A stretch of 34,016 bases of DNA from a virus (taxonomy: Duplodnaviria; Heunggongvirae; Uroviricota; Caudoviricetes), in IMG/VR virus record IMGVR_UViG_2521172734_000003; one strand, given 5' to 3'. The notes under the pieces are model-generated. The model searched no databases and was not told the DNA's origin. It saw only the letters and a list, made by a program, of their open reading frames with translations. The position numbers were made by a program, and so were the translations under genes. Of this stretch, positions 3,780 through 21,674 are shown piece after piece. Each line of letters starts with the position of its first letter. Position 1 is the first letter of the stretch.

Positions 3780-3870
3780 TTTTTTTACCTCATGACAGAT
3801 TTAAGGATGAACAAATCCCTGCCATTGCTGGCATATAAGAATGAAACCGGATATTTATTACGGAACTGTT

Positions 3871-4062
3871 TTAAAGACCTGCCGGGATTTCGATATTATC
3901 CTGGTGAATAACTTTATCGACCGGGTAACAGTTACCGGGAATTTTCTGTTCGGTTGCTGCAGTCATACACTCCTGCATTGTCCTGTGAACACTGACTGCA
4001 ATATCAACTGGCTCTCCGGAAACAAGAAAAACTGTCAGAACAAGCGCAAATGCAGAATTCAT
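3871..4062 (-). CDS. ydfD: YdfD-like small protein (Qin prophage lysis-associated protein)
   Basis: 63-aa product MNSAFALVLTVFLVSGEPVDIAVSVHRTMQECMTAATEQKIPGNCYPVDKVIHQDNIEIPAGL starting at the internal Met of the 81-aa ORF; start overlaps dicB stop in an ATGA arrangement; matches my recollection of E. coli YdfD almost residue for residue. Confidence 0.8.
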   Translation of the reverse strand: MNSAFALVLTVFLVSGEPVDIAVSVHRTMQECMTAATEQKIPGNCYPVDKVIHQDNIEIPAGL

Positions 4063-4247
4063 TGTGCACATCCTTTTGGCATCAGACGTAAACGAGCCAG
4101 CATTGAAACAATGCATATTTTATTTAATAGCTCCCGTTCTTGTTTTCTCTTGTTAATGGCATCTTCAGTAAATACAGGGTTACTGATAGTGACACCAATT
4201 TCAAAACAACCTTCAGACGTATTAACGTTTGGTAATAACGTTTCCAT
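4059..4247 (-). CDS. dicB: Cell-division inhibitor DicB
   Basis: 62-aa product METLLPNVNTSEGCFEIGVTISNPVFTEDAINKRKQERELLNKICIVSMLARLRLMPKGCAQ from the internal Met of the 97-aa ORF; matches recalled Qin-prophage DicB; dicF lies immediately upstream as in K-12. Confidence 0.85.
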   Translation of the reverse strand: METLLPNVNTSEGCFEIGVTISNPVFTEDAINKRKQERELLNKICIVSMLARLRLMPKGCAQ

Positions 4248-4416
4248 TATCGCGTCCTCAACAATGAATTTTGTGATGCGGTGCCTGGTGCCTCCAGGTG
4301 ACGTTAACCAGTTAACAATTAACGCCGGATACAGAGAATCCACCCATAACACTGTTTTTGGTTTTAACTGTTCCGCGTGCGCTCAGCCGCATTCACCGCA
4401 TCACAAAATTCACTTT

Positions 4417-4474
4417 AAAAAGGGCGGCAGAGCAGTCACGGAGTAAAACTGATACCGCCAAACGTCACCAGAAA
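4417..4474 (-). ncRNA. dicF: DicF small regulatory RNA (ftsZ-targeting antisense sRNA) with its intrinsic terminator
   Basis: Reverse complement of 4417-4474 reads TTTCTGGTGACGTTTGGCGGTATCAGTTTTACTCCGTGACTGCTCTGCCGCCCTTTTT, which matches the DicF sequence as I recall it; located between ydfC and dicB as in Qin. Confidence 0.8.
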
Positions 4475-4786
4475 ATTGATAACAGAGGGCGTTGCAGCGG
4501 GGTTGTCACTTAAGCGTATGGTCAACCTGACAACCCGGTGTCCTCAACGGGGGAAGGAATAACCCCGCCATACTTACCGCCGCACCATTTCGCGGATTGC
4601 CACAACCGGAAGCGCACGGTCGACGAAAATTTAACGACAGGCTATCTATGAACCAGCTACCTCGCCGTGCGCTTTCGCGTTATGGTCTGACTTTGCAGGG
4701 AAATTTCCTTTCAGTAAACTGTCTGTGCCGGATGCTCACCCGTGGAGAACTCCTTACTTACCAACCTTAGCTTCGTTGGTTAGCTA

Positions 4787-5320: not shown

Positions 5321-5495
5321 GCTGACCTCATTTCCCCTTAACGCCGGGGTAGCGGAACAAAAACCTGCTGCATAGTTATTAAAGTTGAACCCTGCCGTCA
5401 TGTTCTTACGCCTCGGGCTGGCTACTTAACCCCTGACCACTGCCTGGTAACTCGAAGTATTGCCCTGCATTCTGTGGGGCGGGGTGGGTGGCAGG

Positions 5496-5546
5496 TATAT
5501 AATGTACTTTGTGTTCATTGTTGTAAAGTACATTTAGTACATTTTG
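5496..5546 (-). promoter_or_regulatory. Left operator/promoter region (OL/PL-like) for the dicB early-left operon
   Basis: Three copies of the heptamer ATGTACT/AGTACAT (5502-5508, 5527-5533, 5536-5542) in an AT-rich stretch between the repressor gene and ydfA; the same heptamer recurs twice in the right operator region. Confidence 0.4.
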
Positions 5547-5617
5547 TGTGTAAAAAAATGAGATGGGATAAAGTGAAGCACAAACCCGGAGGAAGGCGCT
5601 ACCGGATTTATGCTGGT

Positions 5618-6037
5618 TTAAGAGGCTTTTTGTTTTTTCTTTCGTGCTAACTCTTCGTAAATTGCATTGTACTTCTGTTTTTTCTCTTCAAGAGTTTTTA
5701 AAAGTTCATCTGTCTCACTGTCAGGGAGCTCGTCCAGAAGGTCAATGATGATTTTTTGTCTTGGATTTAACTCCTGATAGAAACGTACCTGTCCACTTTC
5801 TTCTGTATCCTCTCCCAAAAGATAGGTTGGTGTTGTTCCTATTAGTGTTGCTAATTCCCTTAATTTCTCCCGGCGAGGAATTGTTTCGCCATTAAACCAT
5901 TTGCTAACCGCTTTTGGTGTTAATTTCATTCGACGGGCAATTTCTGCCTGCCTTCCATGTTGTTCATAACCAGCGTTTTCACAGGCTAGCGCAAGCCTAC
6001 TGGCGAACTCTTTACGCGCTTTATCTTCATGAACCAT
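5618..6037 (-). CDS. Prophage repressor, XRE-family HTH (DicA/RacR-like CI analogue)
   Basis: 139-aa ORF with N-terminal HTH (QAEIARRMKLTPKAVSKWFNGETIP) and C-terminal region resembling recalled DicA (IIIDLLDELPDSETDELL vs ELLELFNALPESEQDTQL); divergent from a Cro-like gene. Confidence 0.75.
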   Translation of the reverse strand: MVHEDKARKEFASRLALACENAGYEQHGRQAEIARRMKLTPKAVSKWFNGETIPRREKLRELATLIGTTPTYLLGEDTEESGQVRFYQELNPRQKIIIDLLDELPDSETDELLKTLEEKKQKYNAIYEELARKKKQKAS

Positions 6038-6055
6038 AAGTTCAATGATATTCGC

Positions 6056-6095
6056 TCTTGAATGTACTGTCAGTTCTGTTATAGCATGTACTCAA
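6056..6095 (+). promoter_or_regulatory. Right operator/promoter region (OR/PR-like): -35 TTGAAT (6058-6063), 16-bp spacer, -10 TATAGC (6080-6085), flanked by two ATGTACT operator heptamers
   Basis: Heptamers at 6062-6068 (overlapping -35) and 6086-6092 (just after -10) in the 79-bp gap between repressor and cro-like gene. Confidence 0.45.
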
Positions 6096-6116
6096 AGTTC
6101 ACATTGTGAGGGTGAT

Positions 6117-6371
6117 ATGAACCAGAAAACACTTGAAGATGTAATCAAAACTGTTCGCGTTGCTGTTGTGGCCGACGTTTGTGGTGTCAGCCAAAGAGCA
6201 ATCTATAAATGGATGGATAACGGAAAATTGCCTCGCACAGAATATACCGGCGAAACAAATTACGCTGAAAAAATCGCTCTTGCATCAAACGGATTATTTT
6301 CTGCCGATGCAATTTTAACTATTGGCAGGAATAAAACTACTACGAAAAAGCTGATGGGAGTTGATTCATGA
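6117..6371 (+). CDS. Cro/YdaS-like HTH regulator (84 aa)
   Basis: Start at internal Met with GAGGGTGAT Shine-Dalgarno; HTH VCGVSQRAIYKWMDNGKLP; divergent from repressor; stop overlaps next gene start (ATGA). Confidence 0.7.
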   Translation: MNQKTLEDVIKTVRVAVVADVCGVSQRAIYKWMDNGKLPRTEYTGETNYAEKIALASNGLFSADAILTIGRNKTTTKKLMGVDS

Positions 6372-6793
6372 AAATCAAGCATGAACACATCCGCATGGCG
6401 ATGAATGCCTGGGCGCATCCGGACGGCGAAAAAGTACCGGCTGCGAAAATTACCAAAGCGTATTTCGAGCTGGGAATGACGTTCCCGGAACTGTATGACG
6501 ACAGCCATCCGGAAGCCCTGGCCCGTAATACCCAGAAAATTTTCCGCTGGGTGGAGAAGGACACCCCTGATGCTGTTGAAAAAATTCAGGCGCTGTTACC
6601 GGCGATCGAAAAGGCGATGCCGCCTTTGCTGGTGGCCCGTATGCGCAGCCACAGTTCTGAATATTACCGTGAGATCGTCGAACGGAGGGATCGGCTGGTG
6701 AAGGATGTCGATGATTTTGTTGCGTCAGCGGTTGTTTTGTATGACCAGATGAATCGCGGCGGCCCGGCAGGGAATGCTGTGGTGATGCACTAA
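6368..6793 (+). CDS. YdaT-like protein in the cII position (141 aa)
   Basis: Size and position match the Rac racR / ydaS-ydaT arrangement; family assignment is from position and size only. Confidence 0.5.
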   Translation: MKIKHEHIRMAMNAWAHPDGEKVPAAKITKAYFELGMTFPELYDDSHPEALARNTQKIFRWVEKDTPDAVEKIQALLPAIEKAMPPLLVARMRSHSSEYYREIVERRDRLVKDVDDFVASAVVLYDQMNRGGPAGNAVVMH

Positions 6794-6815
6794 AAGCACG
6801 GTGTTCGGGGGTTTT

Positions 6816-7778
6816 ATGAGCAGCAAGCTTCATGGTCTTGTCTGGGAAGGGTGCGCCTTCACCGGCATGATCTTATCCAGGGTGGCGGTTATGGCCCGTC
6901 TTGCAGACTACAGCAATGACGAGGGCGTGTCATGGCCTGCCATTGAAACTATCCGGCGTCAGATCGGTGCAAGAAGTGAATCCACAGTGAAATCGGCTAT
7001 TGCAGAACTGGCGAAAGAGGGCTGGCTGACGAAGGAAGAGCGTAAGGTCGGTGGGCGTAATGTAAGCAATATCTATCGGCTTAATGTGGAAAAACTCGAA
7101 GCAGCTGCGGCGGCGGCGCGTGAGTCATATAAACCGAAAAGAAAAATTAGCCCGGCAAAAAATGACCCGTTAACAGTTGACCCGTCAAATATTGACCCCT
7201 CAACGGTTGACCCGTCAAATTTTGATGGATCAACTGTTGATAAAAAACTGCCGATTAGGGGGCCGATGATTGACCCCGATCCGTCAGTATTAAAACCTGA
7301 TCCGTCAGATAAAAGATCTTCTTGTCCGGACGCTTCGCAACCGGACCCGCAGACGGCTGAACAGGATTTTTTAACCCGACACCCTGACGCGGTTGTGTTC
7401 AGTGCGAAAAAACGCCAGTGGGGAAGTCAGGAAGATTTGGTGTGCGCACAGTGGATCTGGGGACGAATCGTGAGTCTTTACGAGCAGGCGGCCAGCTATG
7501 ATGGCGAGATCACTAGACCGAAAGAACCCAACTGGACAGCATGGGCCAATGACGTTCGCACAATGCGGATGCTGGATGGCAGAACTCACAGACAAATTTG
7601 TGAAATGTTTGGGCGTCTCCAGCGGGATTCGTTCTGGGTAAAAAACATCATGAGTCCGGCAAAACTCCGGGAAAAATGGGATGAACTGGTTATCCGCCTG
7701 GGGCGTTCGCCTGCGCAGCGTTGCGTGAATCACATTTCTGAACCGGACACTGAAATTCCGCCGGGCTTCAGGGGGTAA
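6816..7778 (+). CDS. Replication initiation protein, lambda O-like with N-terminal HTH (start could also be 6801)
   Basis: HTH segment SWPAIETIRRQIGARSESTVKSAIAELAKEGWL typical of phage replication initiators; gene contains iteron-like DNA repeats as the lambda O gene contains ori. Confidence 0.65.
   Translation: MSSKLHGLVWEGCAFTGMILSRVAVMARLADYSNDEGVSWPAIETIRRQIGARSESTVKSAIAELAKEGWLTKEERKVGGRNVSNIYRLNVEKLEAAAAAARESYKPKRKISPAKNDPLTVDPSNIDPSTVDPSNFDGSTVDKKLPIRGPMIDPDPSVLKPDPSDKRSSCPDASQPDPQTAEQDFLTRHPDAVVFSAKKRQWGSQEDLVCAQWIWGRIVSLYEQAASYDGEITRPKEPNWTAWANDVRTMRMLDGRTHRQICEMFGRLQRDSFWVKNIMSPAKLREKWDELVIRLGRSPAQRCVNHISEPDTEIPPGFRG
7160..7310. repeat. Iteron-like direct/inverted repeats (TTGACCCGTCAA variants) inside the O-like gene; candidate replication origin
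   Basis: AGTTGACCCGTCAAAT, ATTGACCCCTCAACGG, GTTGACCCGTCAAATT, TTGATGGATCAACTGTTGAT, ATTGACCCCGATCCGTCAG, CCTGATCCGTCAGAT in about 150 bp; encoded peptide repeats DPSNIDPSTVDPSNFDGSTVD. Confidence 0.5.
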
Positions 7779-7818
7779 GTGTTAATTTCTGGTCATGAGG
7801 TAATTTTCAGGAGGGCTT

Positions 7819-8241
7819 GTGGCAAAAGTTTTTACACAAGAAGAGCGGGAAAAAATTAAAGGGCAGGTTCTTGAACTCGTACGCCAGAGTGGGCGTGAGA
7901 CGTTACGACAACTGGAAGCTAAAACTGGGGCAACAAGATATCTGATGAGCGTTCTGGCCAGAGAGCTGGTTGCCAGTGGCGATGTATACAACTCTGGTTA
8001 CGGGTTATTCCCGTCTGAGCAGGCGCGCAAGGACTGGCAAAACGCCCGCAAAAAACTCTCAAGGGCAAAGCTGAAGAAACCATCTGTGGTTGATCCGGAC
8101 CTTATCTGGCTATTACCAGACGGCGAAATACGCCGCTACGACAGGCGTCAGAACATAATCTGTCGCGAGTGCCGGAAGAGCGAAGTTATGCAGCGCATAT
8201 TGTCGTTTTATCAGGGTAATTTTCAGGAGGTAGCGCAGTGA
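7819..8241 (+). CDS. Hypothetical protein (140 aa), GTG start
   Basis: ORF preceded by GGTAATTTTCAGGAGG; stop overlaps next gene start. Confidence 0.55.
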   Translation: MAKVFTQEEREKIKGQVLELVRQSGRETLRQLEAKTGATRYLMSVLARELVASGDVYNSGYGLFPSEQARKDWQNARKKLSRAKLKKPSVVDPDLIWLLPDGEIRRYDRRQNIICRECRKSEVMQRILSFYQGNFQEVAQ

Positions 8242-9271: not shown

Positions 9272-9625
9272 GCATAAAGGCGATAAACCACCTGACAACA
9301 AAACACTGAAAATTTAAATCAGAAGTGATTTTTATTAAATCCTTAACCAGGAGGGATTTCTGTACCCTCAGAACATCAGGAGGCCGCCCGGAAGGGCGGT
9401 AATGAATGGTCACATTATTCAGAAAAAAATATCCGCGAAAGAGTAGAACAACAGAATTCCTGTTTCTCATTCTGTTTGTCGTGTTGATGATACCGATATC
9501 CCCGTTAATCCTAGTCTGGATAATCGGAAAAATAATTGAGCCAGTTATTGAATTGTATAACGACGTGGTATGGGCGTCATTCAACACACTGCACAATAAA
9601 ATTAATCCGTATAAGGAAAACTGAT

Positions 9626-9889
9626 ATGGCAACTTTGACAAAAAAAGAACGGGCATGGTTGAACGAATTACAGGAAATTCTTGATCGCTGTCCATCACCG
9701 AAAAAAATTGGCTTTTACACCATTGGCGATAAAAGCATTTACCTGTATGACCTACGCCGCATGGATGAAATCATGGAGGCTCTTGATAATCGTTCGTCGA
9801 TGGATTGGTGTGTTGCTGTTCATGATATGAATGCAGGGTTTGATGAAAAGATTTTGTTCCCCTCATCAGTTGAAAGCACTGCGGGTTAA
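9626..9889 (+). CDS. Hypothetical protein (87 aa; internal Met start MATLTKKERAWLNEL)
   Basis: AAGGAAAA SD 5 nt upstream of ATG 9626; the longer 117-aa reading extends into an AT-rich gap and is less likely. Confidence 0.5.
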   Translation: MATLTKKERAWLNELQEILDRCPSPKKIGFYTIGDKSIYLYDLRRMDEIMEALDNRSSMDWCVAVHDMNAGFDEKILFPSSVESTAG

Positions 9890-9899
9890 GGAGTAACAC

Positions 9900-10802
9900 A
9901 TGACCACTATTACCAAAGAACGTATTGAATTGTTCATTAAAAATCCGCTTGAAAACGGGCTTACCCGTGGTGAACAAATGGAACTGGCACGGATTGCGCT
10001 GGCATCGCTGGAAGCAGATCCAGTTAAACGAGTTAACTCAGATCAGATGCGCCGAGTCTGCTTAGAAGCTAATCGCCATTTAGATAAATATGACGCGATG
10101 GCGAAAGAGGTAAATAAGTTGCTTGGACGCATCGCCCCGCCAGCGCCGGTAGTGCCGGAAGAAGCAACTCCGGAAAACGTAGAAATGCTCTCTGGCTATG
10201 TTTCCACGTACAAATTAACCGATAGCGAGCGCGATATTGCTGCCGAAATATGGAACGCCTGCCGCACCGCCATGCTTCAGTCCGGAAACTTTCGGGAAAG
10301 CAAGAATTCGTCAACCAATAATTTTCGGGAAATCCCGGAAGCGTCAACCAGCTCTCCGGTAACTCCGGCTCTTCTGCCTGGTGGTTTCACCATTGAGGAG
10401 GCGAAGGAATTACATGAAGACCTGGTACGCAGCCACATAAGCAAGGCCTTAAGTGGCGAAAAGATGAAAAAGAAAGATCGCGATGCTGATTTGCGCTGGA
10501 TTCATGGCGTTATAGTTCAGGCAGCGTGGTTTGTAAAAGCATCACTGGAGCAGAATGCACTATCGGGCAACTATCCGGTAACTCCGGATAGTTGGATAAG
10601 CTGTAGTGAGCGAATGCCGGATACCAAAACAGCCGTTCTTGTTGCCAGGGAGTTTGACAGGAAAGGTGACTGGCGAATGAAATGGGCGACTTACATCCCG
10701 GGTCATCCTGACGCTAATGATGGGTGGATAATACCTGGTGCGTCGTGGATACCATCACACTGGATGCCTCTACCAGAACCGCCGCAGGAGGTGCGCCAAT
10801 GA
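9900..10802 (+). CDS. Phage protein with C-terminal DUF551-like Trp/Pro-rich domain (300 aa)
   Basis: C-terminal WISCSERMPDTKTAVLV...GWIIPGASWIPSHWMPLPEPP resembles DUF551 as I recall it; good SD (AAGGAG). Confidence 0.55.
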   Translation: MTTITKERIELFIKNPLENGLTRGEQMELARIALASLEADPVKRVNSDQMRRVCLEANRHLDKYDAMAKEVNKLLGRIAPPAPVVPEEATPENVEMLSGYVSTYKLTDSERDIAAEIWNACRTAMLQSGNFRESKNSSTNNFREIPEASTSSPVTPALLPGGFTIEEAKELHEDLVRSHISKALSGEKMKKKDRDADLRWIHGVIVQAAWFVKASLEQNALSGNYPVTPDSWISCSERMPDTKTAVLVAREFDRKGDWRMKWATYIPGHPDANDGWIIPGASWIPSHWMPLPEPPQEVRQ

Positions 10803-10882
10803 ACTGGCCTGAAGCATTTGCAATTACAGGCGTTGCTATGGCTATAGCTTTTTTAGTATATGTTATTTGTCGGTGGGGGTAA
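10799..10882 (+). CDS. Small hydrophobic peptide (27 aa) MNWPEAFAITGVAMAIAFLVYVICRWG
   Basis: Not in ORF track; ATG overlaps the upstream stop (ATGA); single predicted TM helix. Could be non-coding. Confidence 0.35.
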   Translation: MNWPEAFAITGVAMAIAFLVYVICRWG

Positions 10883-10917
10883 AAACGTTCGCCGGGATTA
10901 ACACCAAAGGAGGGAAT

Positions 10918-11022
10918 ATGTCGGATGATATATCACTGGCAATGGAAGGTGCGCTGGCTGTTGTTGCTGTTGTGGGCGTTTACTGCCTGGTTGTGTTTTT
11001 GATGGATCGACTAGGGAACTGA
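10918..11022 (+). CDS. Small hydrophobic peptide (34 aa) MSDDISLAMEGALAVVAVVGVYCLVVFLMDRLGN
   Basis: Not in ORF track; AAGGAGGG Shine-Dalgarno 6 nt upstream of ATG; single TM helix; followed by a 22-bp perfect palindrome. Confidence 0.45.
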   Translation: MSDDISLAMEGALAVVAVVGVYCLVVFLMDRLGN

Positions 11023-11268
11023 ATTCATTACGATATGGGAATTCCCATATCGGGTAAAAACGGTTTGCGGTAAAGCGAGAGTTAAGTAGAATTGCAGCGG
11101 GTGCTTGAGGCTATCTGTCTCAGGCATGAACACCAAAAGGCAGATAGAGAAAAGCCCCAGTTAACATTACGCGTCCTGCAAGACGCTTAACATTAATCTG
11201 AGGCCCAATCTATGTCTCACAAATGTAGGTTAGCCTCTTACGTGCCGAAAGGCAAGGAGAAGCAGGCT

Positions 11269-11424
11269 ATGAAGCAGCAAAAGGCGATGTTAATCGCCCT
11301 GATCGTCATCTGTTTAACCGTCATAGTGACGGCACTGGTAACGAGGAAAGACCTCTGCGAGGTACGAATCCGAACCGGCCAGACGGAGGTCGCTGTCTTC
11401 ACAGCTTACGAACCTGAGGAGTAA
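11269..11424 (+). CDS. hok: Hok/Gef-family type I toxin (51 aa, HokD/RelF-like)
   Basis: MKQQKAMLIALIVICLTVIVTALVTRKDLCEVRIRTGQTEVAVFTAYEPEE from the internal Met of the 70-aa ORF; matches recalled HokD; the in-frame upstream extension is probably leader/mok-like, not Hok. Confidence 0.85.
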   Translation: MKQQKAMLIALIVICLTVIVTALVTRKDLCEVRIRTGQTEVAVFTAYEPEE

Positions 11425-12928: not shown

Positions 12929-13309
12929 ATGACTGAACGCATAGAATTTGTTTTGCCTTACCCGCCAACGGTGAACACTTACTGGCGTCGTCGTGGAAGC
13001 ACATATTTTGTATCAAAAGCCGGGGAGCGTTATCGCCGGGCAGTGGCGCTTATTGTTCGCCAGCAGCGGCTGAAATTAAGCCTGTCCGGAAGGTTGGCAA
13101 TAAAAATTATTGCAGAACCACCGGATAAGCGCCGCCGTGACCTGGACAATATCCTGAAAGCACCGCTGGATGCGCTGACGCATGCGGGAGTGTTAATGGA
13201 CGATGAGCAGTTTGATGAAATCAATATCGTTCGTGGTCAGCCAGTATCTGGTGGACGTCTGGGGGTGAAGATTTACCCCATAATGCATGAAGAGCAGGTC
13301 AAAAAATGA
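12929..13309 (+). CDS. rusA: Holliday-junction resolvase RusA
   Basis: 126 aa; PYPPTVNTYWRRRG...PDKRRRDLDNILKAPLDALTHAGVLMDDEQ resembles recalled RusA (PWPPSNNRYYR...[30 protein letters not shown]). Confidence 0.85.
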   Translation: MTERIEFVLPYPPTVNTYWRRRGSTYFVSKAGERYRRAVALIVRQQRLKLSLSGRLAIKIIAEPPDKRRRDLDNILKAPLDALTHAGVLMDDEQFDEINIVRGQPVSGGRLGVKIYPIMHEEQVKK

Positions 13310-14127
13310 AACTGGAAGATTTACCGAAATACTACTCCCCAAAATCCCCTGGTCTGACCGATGCATCGGCCTCAACGTCAAAAGATGCGCTGAGTATCAC
13401 TGATGTGATGGCCGCGCAGGGCATGACACAGAATCGGGCTGAGATGGGTTTTTCTGCGTTCCTGGGGAAAATGGGCATCAGTATGAATGACAGGGCGCGG
13501 GCAACAGAATTACTGGCAGATTATGCACTCAGTCGGTGCGATCGTGTGGCGGCGTTGAGAAAACTTCCGGCAGAAATAAAACCGGTAGTGATGCGCATTA
13601 TGGCTTCGTACGCTTTTGAGGATTATGCCCGCAGCGCAGCGAGTAAAAAGCAGTGCCCCTGTTGCCGAGGGGAAAAATTTATTGAAGGCGAAGTTTTTAC
13701 AAACAAGGTTCAGTATCCGGATGGCAAGCCGCCAGTATGGGCAAAGTGTACGAAAGGTGTGTATCCGTCTTACTGGGAAGAATGGAAAAAAATTCGGGAG
13801 GTGGTGAAAGTTTCTTGTCCTGAATGTAAAGGGAAGGGGGAGATTTCCACTGCCTGTAAAGACTGCCGTGGGCGTGGTGTTGCCATTCATCGTGAAGAGT
13901 CGGTAAAACGTGGTATGCCTGTTATCAGAGACTGCCAGCGTTGTGGTGGTCGTGGCTGTGAAAGACTACCATCAACGGAGGCATTTAATGCCATACGCAA
14001 AGTGACGAGTGCTATCACGCTTGATACGTGGAAAAAATCAGTGAAACGCTTTTACGATACGTTGGTGGTTCGGTTTGACATTGAAGAGGCATGGGCGGAG
14101 CGGCAGTTAAAGAGGGTAACGCGATAG
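13306..14127 (+). CDS. Late-gene antiterminator Q-like protein with four CxxC zinc-binding pairs
   Basis: 273 aa; CPCC, CPEC, CKDC, CQRC clusters; immediately upstream of a lambda-PR'-like promoter. Confidence 0.7.
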   Translation: MKLEDLPKYYSPKSPGLTDASASTSKDALSITDVMAAQGMTQNRAEMGFSAFLGKMGISMNDRARATELLADYALSRCDRVAALRKLPAEIKPVVMRIMASYAFEDYARSAASKKQCPCCRGEKFIEGEVFTNKVQYPDGKPPVWAKCTKGVYPSYWEEWKKIREVVKVSCPECKGKGEISTACKDCRGRGVAIHREESVKRGMPVIRDCQRCGGRGCERLPSTEAFNAIRKVTSAITLDTWKKSVKRFYDTLVVRFDIEEAWAERQLKRVTR

Positions 14128-14132
14128 TGTTG

Positions 14133-14160
14133 TTGATTTTTCCCGAATCTGTGGTAAATT
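14133..14160 (+). promoter_or_regulatory. Late promoter PR'-like (-35 TTGATT, -10 TAAATT with TG extension) with downstream qut/pause region
   Basis: GGTAAATTTGCTCTAACGATGGGCG closely resembles lambda PR' as I recall it (GGTAAATTTGACTCAACGATGGG). Confidence 0.65.
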
Positions 14161-14209
14161 TGCTCTAACGATGGGCGTTTTATGCCTGACGTTAGAAGAT
14201 TTTTTACAC

Positions 14210-14231
14210 CCCGCCGCCTGGCGGGTTTTTT
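14210..14231 (+). terminator. Rho-independent terminator (tR'-like) downstream of PR'
   Basis: CCCGCC-GCCT-GGCGGG followed by TTTTTT. Confidence 0.7.
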
Positions 14232-14353
14232 ATGACTGAAATCGCGTCAGTACAGTAAACGCGCTGGTGGCGGTGAATACCTGTCTTTCAGCTTGCTGGC
14301 TTTTTCGACAAGAGTTATTGGTGTGTCACGTTAACCGGAAAAGGGAAAAAGAC

Positions 14354-14710
14354 ATGCTAAAACAGCAGGATATGACAGAAACCGCCAGAGTGGTGTTTAA
14401 TGAATTAAGCGTTTTCCGAACCGGCGACAGTCGGGGAGATAGCGCAGAATACTTACCTTTCACGCGAACGCTGCCAGTTAATACTGACCCAGCTGGTTAT
14501 GGCGGGTCTGGCAGACTATCAGTTCGGTTGTTACAGACGCCTTCCGCAGTGAAGGCTTTTTTATTTGTGGTAAATGGGCGGCTGGTGGGTGTTAGGGGCA
14601 CCCACCAGCCATCTGCTCATGCGTTGGGTTCACAAGCAAACCTCAGGCCCACTGCTTTGCGCAAAAGCAGAATGAGCCTATCAGAGACAGGCTTAATGAT
14701 CCATGCTTAA
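14354..14710 (+). CDS. Doubtful hypothetical ORF (118 aa) upstream of the methyltransferase
   Basis: AAGGGA SD and stop overlapping the MTase start argue for coding; an internal terminator-like hairpin (14539-14566) and a 10-bp stem-loop (14584-14612) argue against. Confidence 0.3.
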   Translation: MLKQQDMTETARVVFNELSVFRTGDSRGDSAEYLPFTRTLPVNTDPAGYGGSGRLSVRLLQTPSAVKAFLFVVNGRLVGVRGTHQPSAHALGSQANLRPTALRKSRMSLSETGLMIHA

Positions 14711-15752
14711 TACTGTAAAAATATCCAGTTGTGAGTTAATCAACGCCGACTGCCTGGAATTTATCCGGTCGTTACCCGAAAATTCTGTTGACCTGATAGT
14801 CACGGACCCGCCGTACTTTAAAGTGAAGCCTGAGGGCTGGGATAACCAGTGGAAGGGCGACGATGATTACCTGAAGTGGCTGGACCAGTGTCTGGCGCAG
14901 TTCTGGCGGGTGCTGAAACCTGCCGGAAGTCTTTACCTGTTCTGTGGTCATCGCCTGGCATCTGATATCGAAATCATGATGCGTGAACGCTTCAGTGTGC
15001 TGAACCATATTATCTGGGCGAAGCCGTCCGGACGCTGGAACGGATGCAACAAGGAAAGCCTGCGGGCGTATTTCCCCGCCACAGAGCGCATTCTGTTCGC
15101 GGAACATTATCAGGGGCCGTATCGTCCGAAAGATGCCGGGTATGCGGCGAAGGGCAGTGCACTGAAACAGCATGTGATGGCCCCGCTGATTTCTTACTTT
15201 CGTGATGCGCGCGCGGCCCTGGGGATAACGGCAAAACAGATTGCAGATGCCACAGGAAAGAAAAACATGGTGTCGCACTGGTTCAGTGCCAGTCAGTGGC
15301 AGCTACCGAACGAAAGCGATTATCTGAAATTACAGTCGCTGTTTGCCCGGGTGGCAGAAGAGAAACATCAGCGCGGTGAACTGGAAAAGCCCCACCACCA
15401 GCTGGTGGATACGTATACGTCACTGAACCGGCAGTATGTGGAGCTGCAGAGTGAATATAAGCATCTGCGGCGGTATTTTGGTGTGACGGCGCAGGTGCCG
15501 TACACGGATGTGTGGACACATAAACCGGTGCAGTTCTATCCCGGGAAACATCCGTGCGAAAAACCGGCAGAAATGCTGCAGCAGATAATCAGCGCAAGCA
15601 GTCGTCCGGGTGACCTGGTTGCAGATTTTTTTATGGGCTCAGGTTCAACGGTAAAAGCTGCACTGGCGCTCGGGCGTCGTGCGATTGGCGTTGAACTGGA
15701 GACCGGACGTTTTGAGCAGACAGTCAGGGAAGTTCAGGATTTAATCGTTTGA
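14703..15752 (+). CDS. DNA N6-adenine (N4/N6 class) methyltransferase, orphan
   Basis: 349 aa; motif IV DPPY (VTDPPYF) near N-terminus and motif I-like FMGSGST near C-terminus; no adjacent restriction endonuclease gene. Confidence 0.8.
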   Translation: MLNTVKISSCELINADCLEFIRSLPENSVDLIVTDPPYFKVKPEGWDNQWKGDDDYLKWLDQCLAQFWRVLKPAGSLYLFCGHRLASDIEIMMRERFSVLNHIIWAKPSGRWNGCNKESLRAYFPATERILFAEHYQGPYRPKDAGYAAKGSALKQHVMAPLISYFRDARAALGITAKQIADATGKKNMVSHWFSASQWQLPNESDYLKLQSLFARVAEEKHQRGELEKPHHQLVDTYTSLNRQYVELQSEYKHLRRYFGVTAQVPYTDVWTHKPVQFYPGKHPCEKPAEMLQQIISASSRPGDLVADFFMGSGSTVKAALALGRRAIGVELETGRFEQTVREVQDLIV

Positions 15753-15801
15753 AACGGATGAGATTGCAGAATTAATTACGCACCATTATTATTCTGCTTC
15801 C

Positions 15802-15877
15802 GGCCCTTTAGCTCAGTGGTGAGAGCGAGCGACTCATAATCGCCAGGTCGCTGGTTCAAATCCAGCAAGGGCCACCA
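15802..15877 (+). tRNA. tRNA, anticodon CAT (Ile2/lysidine-type, ileZ-like; Met not excluded)
   Basis: Hand-folded cloverleaf: acceptor GGCCCTT/AAGGGCC, D-arm GCTC-AGTGGTGA-GAGC, anticodon loop CTCATAA, T-arm GCTGG-TTCAAAT-CCAGC, 3' CCA encoded. Confidence 0.8.
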
Positions 15878-15884
15878 TCACATA

Positions 15885-15961
15885 CCGCCATTAGCTCATC
15901 AGGAAAGAGCGCCAGCCTTCGAAGCTGGCTGCGCGGGGTTCAAGTCCCCGATGGCGGTCCA
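15885..15961 (+). tRNA. tRNA-Arg, anticodon TCG (argN-like)
   Basis: Acceptor CCGCCAT/ATGGCGG, anticodon stem CCAGC/GCTGG with loop CTTCGAA, T-arm CGGGG-TTCAAGT-CCCCG, CCA encoded. Confidence 0.75.
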
Positions 15962-15974
15962 TTATCTGCATCAT

Positions 15975-16051
15975 GCGTTGTTAGCTCAGCCGGACAGAGC
16001 AATTGCCTTCTAAGCAATCGGTCACTGGTTCGAATCCAGTACAACGCGCCA
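15975..16051 (+). tRNA. tRNA-Arg, anticodon TCT (argO/argU-like)
   Basis: Acceptor GCGTTGT/ACAACGC, D-arm GCTCAGCCGGACAGAGC, anticodon loop CTTCTAA, T-arm CTGG-TTCGAAT-CCAG, CCA encoded; closely resembles recalled argU. Confidence 0.85.
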
Positions 16052-16065
16052 CACTTATTTTCCCT

Positions 16066-16091
16066 GGCTCGCTTTTGCGGGCCTTTTTTTT
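16066..16091 (+). terminator. Rho-independent terminator after the tRNA cluster
   Basis: GGCTCGC-TTTT-GCGGGCC (one mismatch) followed by TTTTTTTT. Confidence 0.6.
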
Positions 16092-16539
16092 AAATGTCTC
16101 ACAATTCAGACGGTTGACAGTTGTCTGGTTTGCGGGGAGTTTGTTAAAAGAAACTGGCATGGTGAATCCCCCTGTGCGGAGGGGCAATCAGCGAGTAGGT
16201 ATATGGGATAATCGCGGATTCAGGTGCTGGTACTGAATTCACCGGGAGGCACCCGGCACCATGCAATGGCACATAGCGCCACTCTCCAGCCCCTCTCCGG
16301 AGGGGCTTTCTTATGGACAAAAAAATCCCGCGCAGGGAGACGCGGGCGGCAAGGAATAAACAACAAAACGTGAAGTAATATTTCAGCTGGCGAATAATAT
16401 CCGACAGTAATCACTCTGCGCAATAGCGCGGCCTTTTCGTATTGCGGGCTATTGTCTCTCTTCTGCCATTGTCCTGTAGCTTCCGGACTTCAGCCCGCTC
16501 CTCATTTTACTCACAATATTATCCCGGCCGGGAGGATTC

Positions 16540-18402
16540 ATGGCATTTAAACACTATGATGTTGTCAGGGCGGTATCGCCGTCAGACCTTGCTGATGCAC
16601 TTGCTCAAAAAATTCGTGAAGGATGGCAACCATACGGCGGGCCGTTTTCTTCGTATACGGATGATGGCGCAGCACTTATTCAGGCGATTGTCGCAGAAGG
16701 TGATGTGGTCGTCAGTGGTGCAACTGAGCCGGAGTGGTACTACGTCATCGTACTGGCCGGGCAGTCTAATGCCATGGCTTACGGTGAAGGGCTTCCGCTT
16801 CCGGATTCATACGATGCGCCCCATCCGCGCATTAAGCAACTGGCCCGTCGTAACACAGTAACTCCCGGTGGTGAAGTATGCGTATTTAACGACATCATTC
16901 CTGCTGACCATTGTCTGCATGATGTTCAGGATATGAGTACGATTAACCATCCCCGGGCTGACCTGAGCAAAGGGCAGTACGGCTGTGTCGGACAGGGCTT
17001 ACATATTGCCAAAAAACTGCTTCCGTATATCCCTAATAATGCGGGGATCCTGCTGGTACCATGCTGTCGTGGTGGTTCGGCATTCACCCAGGGCACGGAG
17101 GGGACATTCAGCGAGTCCACGGGGGCCAGTCAGGATTCGGCTCGCTGGGGAGTGGGTAAGCCGTTATATCAGGATCTGCTTTTCCGCACGAAGGCAGCAT
17201 TGCAGAAAAACCCGAAAAACGTTTTGCTGGCGATATGCTGGATGCAGGGGGAATTCGATATGAAGAATGCCAGTTACGCCCAGCAGCCAGCAGCATTTCT
17301 TGCAATGGTACAGCAGTTCCGTGCTGACCTTGCCGGGCTGGCGGCGCAGTGTCACGGTGGAAGTCCGGCATCAGTCCCCTGGATTTGTGGCGACACGACA
17401 TACGCGTGGAAACAAGAACACGGTACACAATATGAAGTGGTATATGGTGCATATAAAGGTAAAGAATCCCAGCAGATTTATTTTGTTCCCTTTATGACCG
17501 ATGGTAGCGGAGTTAATACACCGACAAACAACCCGTCAGAAGATCCTGATATTGCCGGGTCTGGTTATTACGGTTCGGCATCCCGAACGAACAAAAACTG
17601 GGTATCATCAAATCGCCCGACGCATTTCAGCTCATGGGCGCGTCGTGGCATTATTCCCGATCGTATGGCAACTGCTATTCTGAACGTAGCCGGTCGCACC
17701 TTAGCCTTCATTAGTGGTAAGGCACCGGAAATCAAACCCTCGCCCGGCGGCGACACGCCATCGGGGCCGTCTGAAGATGCATCCGTACGCACAATCTCCC
17801 TGTTGCCGACAGCCGGAGATGCTGCTGCGCAGGGCTGGAGCATTAAGAATGGCGGAATTCAGTTGTCAGATGGTGTATTTAAGATCACCAAGCAGAGCAA
17901 TAAAGCCTGGTCCCTGACGCGCCCGGTGGATGACGCAGTCTCCCTGCTGACACGGGGTGGCAGACTGAGCTGTAAGTTTCGACTGTCAGGCGCACTGACC
18001 AACAACCAGTTCGGTCTGGGAATTTATCTGTATACCGATGTAGCGTTACCTGACGTCGTGGCGATGACCGGGACTGGTAACCCGTTCCTGATGTCGTTCT
18101 TCACCCAGACCACAGACGGCAAACTGAATCTGATGCATCACAAGAAAGCCGGAAACACAAAGTTGGGCGAGTTCGGGAATTACAGTAACGACTGGCAGAC
18201 GCTGGAGCTGGTGTTCACCGCCGGCAGTGCCACGGTTACTCCGAAACTGAATGGAGTGGCTGGCCCGGCATTCCAGGTCATAAAAGACAGTCTGACAGTG
18301 GGACTAAATGCACTGACGCTGACGGATATTACCAAAAATGCAGCGTATGGCGTTGAGATAGAAAGTCTGGTGCTGGAGATAAATGCACCGGCATCATCAT
18401 AA
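16540..18402 (+). CDS. nanS-p: Prophage-encoded sialate 9-O-acetylesterase NanS-p (N-terminal DUF1737 plus SGNH/SASA esterase domain)
   Basis: 620 aa; starts [12 protein letters not shown]; GQSNAMAYG catalytic-serine motif; GGGAGG SD; located between tRNAs and lysis genes as in Stx-phage late regions. Confidence 0.8.
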
Positions 18403-18551
18403 AAAGTGAGCCAGTCAAATGGAAGGTATCGTTAAACTCACCGGTAGTGTCAGTGGGTCGTCTGAGACGCCTGCATGAGTTATCAGAGCCATCAGTACTT
18501 AACTGGTGGCTTTTTTATTGTTGTCAGCTTCCGGATAACGGGAGACGGGGT

Positions 18552-18767
18552 ATGTACCAGATGGAAAAAATCACAACAGGTGTGTCATACACCACGTCAG
18601 CGGTGGGAACGGGCTACTGGTTCCTGCAGTTGCTGGACAGGGTTTCCCCGTCTCAGTGGGCGGCAATAGGCGTGCTGGGGAGTCTGCTGTTTGGGCTGCT
18701 GACATATCTGACTAACCTGTATTTCAAAATCAGAGAGGACCGTCGTAAGGCGGCGCGGGGGGAGTAA
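18552..18767 (+). CDS. S: Class II holin / pinholin (S21-like) with dual-start motif MYQM (antiholin from 18552, holin from 18561)
   Basis: 71-aa product [71 protein letters not shown] matches the recalled S21 family; pairs with a SAR endolysin. Confidence 0.85.
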
Positions 18768-18771
18768 AGCG

Positions 18772-19578
18772 ATGAAGAAAAAATACGAACTGGGTGTTAA
18801 AGGGATAAATAATTATCCGGATAAGATTACTGTTACTGTGGCACTGGAAATTGGTGGGTATCCGTCACTGTTGTTGCCAGATGTGGCGATTAGTCTTGAC
18901 CGTACTGAAGGTGCCACGCTGGAGTTTTACGAAGCTGAGGCGAAAAAGCAGGCGAAGCAGTTTTTCATGGATGTTGCTGCCGGGTTATGTGAAGGGAACG
19001 AACCGTTGCCGGAAAAGCGCCCCATAATTTTAGAGGCGCAGGATGTGTTGATAACCTACAAAGGAAAGCTACCGGGAAGAATTACTGGTTCTCTGAAGAT
19101 GCCGCCGTCAACACTGCGGTCAGAAAAAGAGGCGTCTTGTCTGCAGTCTGAGTACTCCATTACGGTTAAAAGTGCCGGAGAGGAAGGAAATAAACGTTAT
19201 TTTATTGCGTCTGCACCTGATAAAGATCAGGAATGGGAGTGTAACCGGCCATCCTTTGTTGTATACGGAGATGGCGGGAAAATAACCATCTCAGAAAATG
19301 GGAAATTAACACCGCCATCGCACCAGCATAGTGAGGCGCTCATTGAATTTGCCATTGATTACCTGAAGAACAATAAAAAGCAGGGGCTGATGAAGCGCAT
19401 TGGTCGTTGCATGGGATATCTGCAGGTAGCAGCTGAGATTGAAATGATGGCCAGTGGTGCTGACAATGATGCAGTTGTGCTGGAGGCTCTTCTGCGTGAT
19501 TTTGATAATACGCCCTTTAAGAAAGCACCTGTTGACTGGATGCAGCCGGGGATGACTTATCTGAAAGGGCGTATATAA
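18772..19578 (+). CDS. Hypothetical soluble protein (268 aa) inserted between holin and endolysin
   Basis: ORF starting 5 nt after the holin stop; no TM segment, no motif I recognise. Confidence 0.6.
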   Translation: MKKKYELGVKGINNYPDKITVTVALEIGGYPSLLLPDVAISLDRTEGATLEFYEAEAKKQAKQFFMDVAAGLCEGNEPLPEKRPIILEAQDVLITYKGKLPGRITGSLKMPPSTLRSEKEASCLQSEYSITVKSAGEEGNKRYFIASAPDKDQEWECNRPSFVVYGDGGKITISENGKLTPPSHQHSEALIEFAIDYLKNNKKQGLMKRIGRCMGYLQVAAEIEMMASGADNDAVVLEALLRDFDNTPFKKAPVDWMQPGMTYLKGRI

Positions 19579-19587
19579 GGTGGCTCG

Positions 19588-19902
19588 TTATCTGTTGCTG
19601 GATAATCGACTGAAGATGCGTTCTTTTTGTGTTTTTGCGTAATGATTGTCCCACTCACAATCAAGGTAGCTTAATTCTTCATTCAACCAGTTATTTATAT
19701 TGGTCTTAATACGCATAAGCATGGGCTGTGTTAATGCTCTGGCGATAATGCCGAGAGTCACAGGTGTGAGATGTCCATACGGCTCAGCCTGAATGGATTT
19801 TACTGCATCGTGTTCTTGTGGGAGGAGTAAGAGGCACTCTGATTTTACCCGCTCATTTATGGCTTGCAGGCATAAATCATAATTATGTTGATCGTTATGC
19901 AT
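19588..19902 (-). CDS. Hypothetical protein (104 aa), convergent with the 268-aa gene, own upstream region
   Basis: Minus-strand ORF with GAGGA SD; 24-bp inverted repeat CTGAAATtgtcagatatATTTCAG (19916-19939) immediately upstream. Confidence 0.5.
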   Translation of the reverse strand: MHNDQHNYDLCLQAINERVKSECLLLLPQEHDAVKSIQAEPYGHLTPVTLGIIARALTQPMLMRIKTNINNWLNEELSYLDCEWDNHYAKTQKERIFSRLSSNR

Positions 19903-20030: not shown

Positions 20031-20564
20031 ATGAACACCAAAATCAAATATGGCCTGTCGGCTGCCGTTCTGGCGTTGATTGCCATCGGTGCGCCTGCGC
20101 CTGATATTCTCGACCAGTTTCTGGATGAAAAAGAAGGTAACCACACAACGGCATACCGTGATGGTGCGGGTATCTGGACCATCTGCCGCGGTGCCACAAT
20201 GGTGGATGGTAAACCTGTTATTCCGGGCATGAAACTGTCGAAGGAAAAATGCGACCAGGTTAATGCCATTGAACGGGATAAGGCGCTGGCATGGGTGGAG
20301 CGCAATATTAAAGTTCCACTGACCGAACCACAGAAAGCGGGTATAGCGTCATTCTGTCCCTATAACATTGGCCCCGGTAAGTGTTTCCCGTCGACGTTTT
20401 ATAAGCGGCTGAATGCTGGTGACCGCAGGGGAGCGTGTGAGGCGATTCGCTGGTGGATTAAGGACGGTGGCAGAGACTGCCGTATCCGCTCAAATAACTG
20501 TTATGGTCAGGTATCCCGTCGTGACCAGGAGAGCGCGCTGGCGTGCTGGGGAATCGACAGATAA
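20031..20564 (+). CDS. R: SAR endolysin, T4-lysozyme-like muramidase (GH24) with N-terminal signal-anchor-release domain
   Basis: N-terminal KYGLSAAVLALIAIGAPA weakly hydrophobic segment; catalytic E-x8-D-x5-T (EGNHTTAYRDGAGIWTICRG); resembles recalled R21/P1 Lyz. Confidence 0.85.
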   Translation: MNTKIKYGLSAAVLALIAIGAPAPDILDQFLDEKEGNHTTAYRDGAGIWTICRGATMVDGKPVIPGMKLSKEKCDQVNAIERDKALAWVERNIKVPLTEPQKAGIASFCPYNIGPGKCFPSTFYKRLNAGDRRGACEAIRWWIKDGGRDCRIRSNNCYGQVSRRDQESALACWGIDR

Positions 20565-21206: not shown

Positions 21207-21674
21207 ATGAACCGTGTTCTGTGTGTGGTGATTATTGTCATGCTGGTGGCCTGTGGTGCGCTTAGTCTGGGGCTGAATCATTACCGTGATAACGCCATTA
21301 CCTACAAAGCCCAGCGCGACAAAAATGTCAGAGAACTGAAGCTGGCGAACGCGGCAATTACTGACATGCAGATGCGTCAGCGTGATGTTGCTGCGCTCGA
21401 TGCAAAATACTCGAGGGAATTAGCCGATGCGAGAGCTGAAAATGAAACTCTTCGCGCTGACGTTGCCGCTGGTCGTAAGCGCCTGCGTATCAACGCCACC
21501 TGTCCAGGTCCCGTGCGTGAAGCCACCGGCACCGCCCGCGTGGATAATGCAACCGGCCCCCGACTGGCAGACACCGCTGAACGGGATTATTTCACCCTCA
21601 GAGAGCGGCTGATGACGATGCACAAGCAACTGGAAGGGGCGCAGGAATATATCCGTACTCAGTGCCTGAAATAA
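21207..21674 (+). CDS. Rz: Spanin inner-membrane subunit Rz (i-spanin)
   Basis: 155 aa; N-terminal TM helix then coiled-coil periplasmic domain; Rz1 embedded in +1 frame. Confidence 0.85.
21442..21612 (+). CDS. Rz1: Spanin outer-membrane lipoprotein subunit Rz1 (o-spanin), embedded within Rz
   Basis: [15 protein letters not shown] lipobox followed by a Pro-rich mature region; entirely inside the Rz reading frame. Confidence 0.8.

Follow-up and report, generated by a model that had tools for sequence, protein, structure and literature searches.

The window analysed here, a stretch of 34,016 nt from a caudoviricete genome, carries in order along its + strand a Q gene, a DNA methyltransferase gene, three tRNA genes (15802-16051), a spacer, a nanS-p gene and the lysis genes. 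The elements that the original prediction had named in this layout are all present, PR' as a candidate. The 273-aa product of the first gene (13306-14127, + strand) is a Q-type late antiterminator, matching PHROG 127/25523 ('anti-termination protein Q-like') and Pfam PF03589 (Antiterm, E 9e-51), and is 95.6% identical to the 'antitermination protein' of enteroaggregative E. coli 55989. Downstream on the same strand, a candidate PR' was recognized by eye at 14133-14160 (TTGATT at 14133-14138, 16 nt, then TG-n-TAAATT at 14152-14160), followed by a tR'-like intrinsic terminator located by a terminator scan (stem 14210-14225, T-run to 14232); a consensus sigma-70 scan called neither PR' nor a promoter for the STnc100 gene described below. 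A Q gene (PF03589) with a terminator (14210-14225) shortly after it is the setting by which a lambdoid moron site is recognized. Homology to the Stx2a phage 1447 begins exactly at 14210, and the N6/N4 DNA methyltransferase gene that follows (14703-15752, + strand; Pfam PF01555, E 2e-44; PHROG DNA methyltransferase) is 99.9% identical to the 55989 copy and 93% to the Stx2a phage 'DNA methylase'. In lambdoid phages, Q-modified polymerase starting at PR' ignores the terminators of the late operon. By this established biology, RNA polymerase leaving PR' after induction and modified by Q would pass tR' and every other terminator of the stretch, and this read-through would allow expression of the methyltransferase, the tRNAs, nanS-p and the lysis and morphogenesis genes.

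Exactly three tRNAs were found by ARAGORN, all on the + strand, with Rfam tRNA scores of 58-72 bits. The first (15802-15877, 72.5 bits) bears a CAT anticodon and is predicted to be a tRNA-Ile2 of the ileZ type; its homologues are annotated as tRNA-Ile by RefSeq/PGAP in 55989 and in an ST131-type genome, and as ileZ1 ('anticodon: cat') in O157:H7 Sakai. Its acceptor stem carries C4-G69 and C5-G68, which we take to be TilS determinants, and the tRNA would be expected to read AUA after lysidine modification. The second, tRNA-Arg(TCG) of the argN type (15885-15961, 58 bits), is annotated argN or argN1 in Stx2a phage 1447 and Sakai prophage Sp4, and the third, tRNA-Arg(TCT) of the argO type (15975-16051, 70.1 bits), has counterparts annotated argO or argO1. 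An intrinsic terminator identified in the scan closes the cluster (16066-16091, + strand; stem 16066-16083, T8 at 16084-16091) and is conserved in Stx2a phage 1447 and in Nil3.

In Shiga-toxin phages the toxin genes lie beyond these tRNAs, and the original prediction had taken the 448 bp between the tRNAs and nanS-p (16092-16539) as the corresponding, now empty slot. This proved mistaken. The 93% match between the window and Stx2a phage 1447 that spans 14210-16092 stops 51 bp before stxA and picks up again at 16095, 42 bp past stxB. Since Stx2 phage homology reaches 16092 and restarts at 16095, the vacant position is a single point at 16092-16095, and the 448-bp spacer is the normal stxB-to-nanS-p intergenic region, found also in Stx phages downstream of stxB. 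This unoccupied cargo, or moron, point is defined by junction sequences and by BLAST breakpoints, which in window coordinates fall at 16092/16095 against phage 1447 and at 16063/16087 against ST131. The same point is filled by stx2AB (1.33 kb) in Stx2 phages and by a 642-bp DUF3927 insert in ST131. Searches for toxin genes left no trace of stxA or stxB: tblastn of Stx2A and Stx2B against the window gave chance matches only (best E 0.37-0.96), as did a word-7 blastn of the 1.33-kb stx2 cassette, none of them in the spacer. The window thus lacks the stxA and stxB pair that defines a Shiga-toxin-converting phage.

The spacer itself had been described as non-coding and rich in hairpins. The hairpins were confirmed (10 terminator-like sites in a scan of 13900-16800, against 2.9 +/- 1.8 in shuffles, with five of them within 16052-16539) and no credible protein ORF was found in the spacer, but it encodes two known small RNAs. 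Directly past the cargo point lies a conserved block on the + strand, TGTCTCACAATTCAG..GTTGACAGTTGTCTG (16095-16127), near-invariant in eight aligned copies whatever precedes it, which is presumed to be the promoter region of the sRNA gene that follows. Three promoter assignments were considered and set aside: the invariant TTGACA at 16114-16119 as a -35 element is not followed at 16-18 nt by an acceptable -10; TG-n-TAAAAG at 16142-16150 as a -10 element lies too far from that TTGACA; and a sigma-54-type GG-N10-GC, checked by eye on the prompting of a Salmonella ChIP-exo report, is not conserved among copies. The gene itself (16128-16318, + strand) belongs to the STnc100 family and represents the EcOnc05 allele. 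It matches Rfam RF02076 over the whole model (1-206 of 206) with 138 bits against a gathering score of 47 (E 1e-30), and the hairpin to which the original prediction had drawn attention (16288-16307) is its terminator. With northern probes taken from the supplement of Tree et al. 2014 (PMC4104026), the EcOnc05 probe matches 35/35 at 16186-16220 as the reverse complement and the EcOnc06 probe 34/35, and the Sakai Hfq peak projects onto 16189-16297. RNAalifold on seven copies yielded 38 pairs, four with compensatory double changes, the core helices being invariant. STnc100 is the first element past the cargo in all loci examined, whether Stx2a, Stx1c, DUF3927-bearing or empty.

Convergent with this gene, on the - strand, is a second predicted Hfq-binding RNA, EcOnc08/EcOnc21, placed at about 16320-16483 with a 5' end possibly beyond 16540. 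The EcOnc08/21/42 probe equals the window's + strand at 16393-16427 (35/35), and the Hfq peaks of Sakai Sp4, when projected onto the window, cover 16321-16393 and 16399-16483. The EcOnc05 and EcOnc08-21 probes both match in the expected strand sense, and the sRNA pair is colinear with Sakai Sp4. The scan assigns this RNA an intrinsic terminator at 16346-16327, with a U-run to 16320, whose hairpin the Stx1c and Sp5 alleles retain with another sequence. In Sakai both RNAs are bound by Hfq (Hfq-CRAC) and seen on northern blots, EcOnc08/21 at about 271 nt; the same study reported insertion of moron CDSs downstream of PR', with convergent sRNAs separating the moron from a conserved phage ORF in Sp3, 4, 5, 9, 10, 11, 15 and 17 (Tree et al. 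2014, PMC4104026). Expression and Hfq binding of the two RNAs in the present prophage are carried over by analogy from that 98%-identical DNA. Since the RNAs are made there in uninduced lysogens and are Hfq-bound, they would be lysogen-expressed riboregulators with promoters of their own.

Two other readings of the spacer were weighed against this one. That it is a mere stack of terminators or insulators, punctuating the late operon and yielding no separate RNA in the source strain, would account for the five terminator-like hairpins, for the failure to call a consensus promoter for either sRNA, and for a fold of the - strand at 16318-16420 whose stability, the terminator apart, does not exceed that of shuffles (z = -0.95). 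It is nevertheless very improbable given that the STnc100 match is full length and includes non-terminator helices with compensatory changes, that the Sakai DNA yields northern-visible, Hfq-crosslinked RNAs from both strands, and that sequence conservation reaches well past the hairpins. More improbable still is that the spacer codes for one or more small proteins, such as the - strand ORFs that have been annotated there. It does contain ORFs of 21-77 aa; PHANOTATE places three short - strand ORFs in phage phi296, and PGAP a partial 'hypothetical protein' pseudogene in 55989 and ST131. Yet PGAP itself does not treat its call as a complete gene (the flag reads incomplete or pseudo), the ORFs lie over tRNA or STnc100 helices, and conservation tracks the RNA helices, with indels in the variable hairpin that are not codon-phased.

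AsxR and AgvB (RF02703/RF02702) are recognized as - strand RNAs of 51-60 nt, just past an STnc100-type sRNA, in which about 42 nt at the 3' side are conserved. EcOnc08/21 fits them in position and orientation, yet the isolated region gave no Rfam match at E<=10, where the identical test on Sp5 gave AsxR with 88 bits, and the AsxR, AgvB and EcOnc03 sequences have no match in the window with 5 mismatches allowed. The sole sigma-70-like site on the - strand (16546-16518) predicts a transcript of about 190 nt, against the roughly 271 nt of the Sakai northern. The RNA would end at 16320 and extend back toward nanS-p, probably covering the 5' untranslated region of that gene; if it is about 271 nt long, it would start within nanS-p and be antisense to the ribosome-binding site and start codon (16530-16542). 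We tentatively raise the possibility that, at the Sakai length, EcOnc08/21 acts as a cis-antisense brake silencing the esterase in lysogens, or represents a new class of sRNA sponge in the AsxR/AgvB position; either proposal is speculative.

The nanS-p-type gene (16540-18402, + strand) encodes a 620-aa prophage sialate O-acetylesterase matching PHROG 143 over its full length and carrying all three NanS-p Pfam domains above cut-offs (N-terminal DUF1737, SASA, C-terminal DUF6645). It is 99.6% identical to the 55989 gene, and homologues are annotated as NanS, 9-O-acetyl-N-acetylneuraminic acid deacetylase or SASA family esterase; esterase activity on 5-N-acetyl-9-O-acetyl neuraminic acid is putative by this homology. 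The lysis genes follow on the + strand: a class II holin (18552-18767; PHROG, and RefSeq annotation projected at 100% identity), an endolysin (20031-20564; PHROG and projected RefSeq annotation) and Rz (21207-21674; RefSeq annotation projected at 100% identity). Two extra ORFs, among them a DUF1327/YdfR-like one (18772-19578, + strand; Pfam DUF1327), intervene between holin and endolysin, so that the genes run S - x - x - R - ... - Rz. A search of the nanS-p-to-holin gap (18403-18551) for a PasA/PasC/Esr41-like RNA gave only noise.

This succession of tRNA(CAT), tRNA-Arg(TCG) and tRNA-Arg(TCT) with downstream nanS-p and holin/endolysin/Rz genes is colinear with Sakai Sp4, Stx2_95 and 55989. 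Sp4, a stx-negative lambda-like prophage of O157:H7, has the same elements in the same order and orientation, also toxin-free (ileZ1-argN1-argO1, EcOnc05, EcOnc08-EcOnc21, ECs_1088). Over the stretch that runs from tRNA-Arg(TCT) through to the start codon of the esterase gene it is 98% identical to the window, 626 aligned bases showing 10 mismatches and 7 gap positions. The two esterase genes share about 87% overall identity, and the upstream parts differ: where the window has the 273-aa Q and the methyltransferase, Sp4 encodes a 123-aa Q, a CAAX protease and an AraC-family regulator. In the prophage adjoining yccA in 55989 (NC_011748) the late region from methyltransferase to tail is 99.6-100% identical, and the two share the tRNA trio, the empty cargo point and lambda-like, siphovirus-type tail genes; unlike the window, that prophage has an IS1 insertion, and its immunity and replication region is unrelated, with no match for the repressor, cro or replication genes. 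The ST131-type genome NZ_CP103557 is 97% identical over Q, methyltransferase, tRNA-Ile, tRNA-Arg(TCT), STnc100 and nanS-p, but its cargo point holds the 642-bp insert with a DUF3927 gene, iraM (- strand) replaces the EcOnc08/21 region and the middle tRNA-Arg(TCG) was not detected. Among Stx2a phages, Stx2_95 (LC567838), VT2-Sakai/Sp5 (NC_000902) and Stx2a_1447 (AP012536) share the methyltransferase, tRNA trio and terminator with the window (93%), and likewise have an STnc100-family sRNA directly after the cargo, then nanS-p and the lysis genes. They differ in the 1.33-kb stx2AB cassette at the point equal to 16092-16095 and in their STnc100 allele, EcOnc27, which is 70-86% identical to that of the window; in Sp5 the - strand partner is AsxR, which the window lacks.

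Overall, we consider it highly probable (roughly 0.9) that 15802-16539 is the standard late-promoter-proximal moron-site module of a lambdoid E. coli prophage in which the protein-cargo position is unoccupied, the module consisting of ileZ-argN-argO and their terminator, the empty point at 16092-16095 and a convergent pair of Hfq-binding sRNAs, leading into nanS-p. The original description of the layout as Stx-phage-like holds insofar as homology with the Stx-phage late-regulatory region is genuine, but it reverses the polarity, because among the states counted the junction is most often toxin-free: it occurs uninterrupted in 1020 of 5426 complete E. coli genomes, against stx2 at that position in 599 and stx1 in 349. 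Stx phages are lambdoid phages with stx in a general cargo site; in them, stxAB with its own promoter is a self-contained cassette inserted after the tRNA terminator and ahead of the STnc100 module, and the prophage studied here belongs to the commoner toxin-free state of the shared backbone.

A toxin-loss derivative, one of the two options in the original prediction, would imply an ancestor with stxAB at the site flanked by the tRNAs and STnc100, removed since then through a clean deletion or through recombination with a toxin-free prophage. Colinearity of the window with Stx2_95 (MTase-tRNAs-[stx2AB]-spacer-nanS-p) is perfect on either side of the cassette, whose sharp boundaries are compatible with homologous exchange via conserved flanks, and repeated stx loss at such loci is one possible explanation raised in a recent preprint. 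Against this, stx remnants are absent at both DNA and protein level (blastn and tblastn of the window), the flanks are closest to toxin-free Sp4 and 55989 (98-100% identity), against 84-93% to Stx phages for both together and only 93% (left) and 70-87% (right) taken one by one, and the identical junction sequence is common to Nil3, Sp4 and the 1020 genomes. The stx2 cassette of phage 1447 has a 5-bp ATCTG at each of its edges, which was examined as a deletion signature and discounted, since alignment ends are freely placeable and all Stx2 copies share one event. Nothing supports a loss, no toxin appears demonstrably ever to have been present here, and we regard this history as unlikely.

The components of the module are already known: the tRNA trio upstream of stx, nanS-p downstream, the post-PR' moron site and convergent sRNA pairs have all been published, and the toxin-free module was annotated with the Sakai genome as part of Sp4. 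Its bearing is chiefly on annotation. A tRNA-to-nanS-p stretch should not be taken by annotators or scanners as an empty toxin slot, nor is a 'Stx-phage' tRNA/nanS-p context evidence for a former toxin, and automated, protein-centred annotation misses the two sRNA genes or mislabels them as pseudo-ORFs. A related arrangement has been reported from enteropathogenic E. coli, where PasD sRNAs, described as structural homologues of STnc100 with a different sequence and seed region, lie directly upstream of a prophage sialate esterase gene (Zhu, Shabalina and Storz 2026 preprint). Lastly, the three tRNAs are expected to decode AUA, CGA/CGG and AGA/AGG, and had been supposed to supply rare codons. 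Counted on the projected RefSeq gene set (an earlier count on a greedy ORF set was noisy), the prophage uses these codons 2-7x as often as core genes, in keeping with such a role, but late genes do not stand out in this respect, early genes being enriched at least as strongly.

The late region of the window follows the order of the original prediction. ARAGORN, run on all 34 kb, found three tRNA genes, exactly where a trio had been placed (CAT, 15802-15877; Arg-TCG, 15885-15961; Arg-TCT, 15975-16051; Rfam scores 58-72 bits), and gene calls match each of the proposed neighbors Q, methyltransferase, nanS-p, S, R and Rz: a 273-aa Q antiterminator (13306-14127, PF03589), an N6/N4 DNA methyltransferase (14703-15752), a 620-aa esterase of NanS-p architecture, DUF1737 + SASA + DUF6645 (16540-18402), a class II holin (18552-18767), an endolysin (20031-20564) and Rz (21207-21674). 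A tR'-like terminator lies at 14210-14225. A candidate PR' (TTGATT-16-TG-n-TAAATT, 14133-14160) was picked out by eye only, and is absent from the calls of a consensus scan. The tRNA cluster is closed by a terminator (stem 16066-16083, T8 to 16091). Terminator-like sites numbered 10 in a 2.9-kb scan, versus 2.9 +/- 1.8 in shuffles, and half of them fall between the tRNAs and nanS-p (16052-16539), including the hairpin at 16288-16307 that the original prediction cited as an example.

The predicted absence of toxin genes also held: tblastn of Stx2A and Stx2B against the window gave chance matches only, all outside the spacer, and no match came from a sensitive blastn search with the stx2 cassette. 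The original observation is thus confirmed as a whole. The 448-bp spacer had been taken for the emptied toxin slot of a Stx-phage-like late region, a view that comparison with toxin-bearing phages revises. Stx2a phage 1447 (AP012536) is 93% identical over window 14210-16092, where the match stops 51 bp short of the start codon of stxA, and it restarts at 16095, 42 bp past the stxB stop. Phage Stx2_95 (LC567838) keeps the window's gene order to the left and right of the toxin genes (methyltransferase, tRNA trio, stx2AB, a spacer-like stretch, nanS-p), and its stretch following stx2AB is 84-87% identical to the entire window 16095-16539. The toxin position therefore corresponds to a point at 16092-16095, directly 3' of the tRNA-cluster terminator, and what was read as a slot is the usual intergenic region separating stxB from nanS-p. 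The homology with late regions of Stx phages thus stands, together with an exact vacant point, while the empty slot does not. Homology to phage 1447 starts exactly at window 14210, marking a mosaic boundary that falls on the tR'-like terminator; farther upstream, Q and the PR' region are of another type than those of that phage.

The spacer encodes an sRNA on the plus strand, STnc100 (RF02076, 16128-16318), matched by Rfam at full length (138 bits; gathering score 47), and terminated by the very hairpin at 16288-16307. In every related locus fetched, STnc100 is the first element past the cargo, the moron gene or genes at this site: it lies 75 nt after stx2B in Stx2a phages (cargo stx2AB), a distance also reported previously (PMC12370729), occurs as two tandem copies after stx1B in a Stx1c phage (cargo stx1AB), directly follows a DUF3927 gene in ST131, and directly follows the tRNAs in the cargo-free phi296, Nil3 and the window. 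When eight copies are aligned, their core is invariant and the upstream block at 16095-16127 is conserved; cargo-specific sequence ends just 5' of this block. The consensus structure computed from seven copies contains 38 base pairs, of which four show compensatory double changes. STnc100 overlaps the Hfq-binding sRNA EcOnc27/sRNA103 (PMC12711010), and PasD, upstream of a prophage esterase gene, is related to it (bioRxiv 10.64898/2026.05.13.724894). In the Stx1c phage, phiSTEC1589-Stx1c, the tandem full-length copies lie at 3398-3609 and 3671-3884 of that locus (139 and 198 bits), and the interval from Q to the toxin genes contains neither a methyltransferase gene nor the tRNA trio.

Northern probe sequences from the supplement of Tree et al. 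2014 (PMC4104026) identify these elements further. The probe for EcOnc05 matches window 16186-16220 exactly, as its reverse complement, and that for EcOnc06 matches at 34 of 35 positions. The EcOnc08/21/42 probe has the plus-strand sequence of 16393-16427 and therefore detects an RNA of the minus strand. A strong intrinsic terminator on that strand (16346-16327, U-run to 16320) adjoins the STnc100 terminator. In VT2-Sakai (Sp5, NC_000902) the equivalent position is occupied by AsxR, convergent with STnc100; the window sequence is neither AsxR nor AgvB, which rules out both as its minus-strand element. The size of EcOnc08/21 in Sakai northerns, about 271 nt, would put its 5' end inside nanS-p, and the sole sigma-70-like site on the minus strand (16546-16518) predicts an RNA of about 190 nt; under either size it lies antisense to the leader of nanS-p. 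Within 16320-16590 (-), it extends towards, and possibly over, the nanS-p RBS and start codon (16530-16542), and would include the GU-rich stretch GUUUUGUUGUUUAUU.

In Sakai, EcOnc05, EcOnc08 and EcOnc21 are carried by the toxin-free lambda-like prophage Sp4, in the order ileZ1-argN1-argO1, EcOnc05 (+), EcOnc08 and EcOnc21 (-), ECs_1088. Between tRNA-Arg(TCT) and the start codon of the esterase gene, 10 mismatches separate Sp4 from the window over 626 aligned bases, with 7 gap positions in addition, and the published Sakai Hfq peaks project to 16189-16297 (+), 16321-16393 (-) and 16399-16483 (-). Insertion of moron genes 3' of PR', and pairs of convergent sRNAs between moron and conserved phage ORF in Sp3, 4, 5, 9, 10, 11, 15 and 17, have been reported (Tree et al. 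2014, PMC4104026; review PMC7873438); the entire arrangement is already described in the literature. For this near-identical Sakai DNA both sRNAs are made in uninduced lysogens and bound by Hfq (PMC4104026), and by analogy EcOnc05 and EcOnc08/21 would be expressed and Hfq-bound in the prophage of the window. After induction, as lambdoid biology suggests, Q-modified polymerase from PR' would transcribe past tR' and past the terminators of the tRNA cluster and the sRNAs, allowing expression of nanS-p and of the lysis and morphogenesis genes.

Among 5426 complete E. coli genomes, the uninterrupted tRNA/STnc100 junction occurs in 1020, and tRNA and STnc100 no more than about 670 bp apart (including a 642-bp DUF3927 insert typical of ST131) in 1750; the stx2-occupied version was found in 599 and stx1 followed by STnc100 in 349. 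The toxin-free state is, if anything, under-represented, because the collection is rich in toxin-producing strains. The prophage beside yccA in enteroaggregative strain 55989 (NC_011748) has a late region 99.6-100% identical to that of the window, with tail genes of the lambda-like siphovirus type and an early region that is Qin-like (DicF, hokD/sok, DUF968, RusA), but differs in its immunity and replication modules, which is typical lambdoid mosaicism. That an ancestor once carried stxAB and lost it cleanly, as the original prediction allowed, is very improbable: the window holds no stx remnants, both flanks have their closest relatives among toxin-free prophages (98-100% identity), whereas Stx phages reach 93% (left) and 70-87% (right), and the identical junction is common to Nil3, Sp4 and one-fifth of complete genomes. 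Nothing in the sequence favors loss. Window 5400-8240 and 9280-11260 (immunity/replication) lack a counterpart in the 55989 prophage (repressor, cro, ydaT and replication genes have no match), and an IS1 of that prophage is absent from the window. An ST131 locus (NZ_CP103557) presents the same module with two variable cargo slots (3091-3732 and 3954-4583 of that locus): the stx position is taken by the 642-bp insert, which carries a DUF3927 gene of 43 aa, and the EcOnc08/21 region is replaced by the anti-adaptor gene iraM, on the minus strand. Its middle tRNA-Arg(TCG) was found by neither Rfam nor RefSeq.

The tRNAs had been proposed to supply rare codons. Frequencies per 1000 codons (ATA, AGA, AGG, CGA, CGG) were 2.4, 1.1, 0.6, 2.3 and 3.2 in 33 core genes of strain 55989; 4.8, 5.2, 5.4, 3.7 and 15.4 in late genes of the window; 11.2, 8.3, 3.7, 6.2 and 8.3 in its early genes; and 36.9, 14.8, 4.9, 4.9 and 7.4 in stx2AB, the most extreme user (ATA odds ratio 16). 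Late genes are enriched (odds ratios: AGA+AGG 6.5, CGA+CGG 3.5, ATA 2.0), and these figures are compatible with the proposal; early genes are enriched at least equally, and ATA shows no enrichment in morphogenesis genes (p = 0.43). Rare-codon enrichment thus characterizes the prophage as a whole rather than its late genes.

The window opens precisely with the stop codon of a gene for a tyrosine integrase (1-1020, -) and its far end lies inside the tape-measure gene, indicating one prophage, from int to tail genes, without host flank. Its early region is Qin-like, with DicF (Rfam, 76.7 bits) at 4422-4473 (-), the sok antitoxin RNA (Rfam, 120 bits) at 11099-11274 (+) and hokD at 11269-11424. A 65-aa hypothetical ORF of 55989 maps to 14354-14552 and is not intact there (199 nt versus 198, not a multiple of three), probably through a frameshift artefact or as a pseudogene; a 147-aa GTG ORF (14267-14710) instead runs into the methyltransferase start. 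The holin-endolysin interval holds two extra ORFs. Residues 1-100 of a 268-aa ORF (18772-19578) match DUF1327 (YdfR family), the homologous position in 55989 is a truncated YdfR pseudogene in RefSeq, and the ORF may have arisen by fusion or by a frameshift. It is followed by a 104-aa minus-strand ORF (19588-19902) matching no Pfam family.
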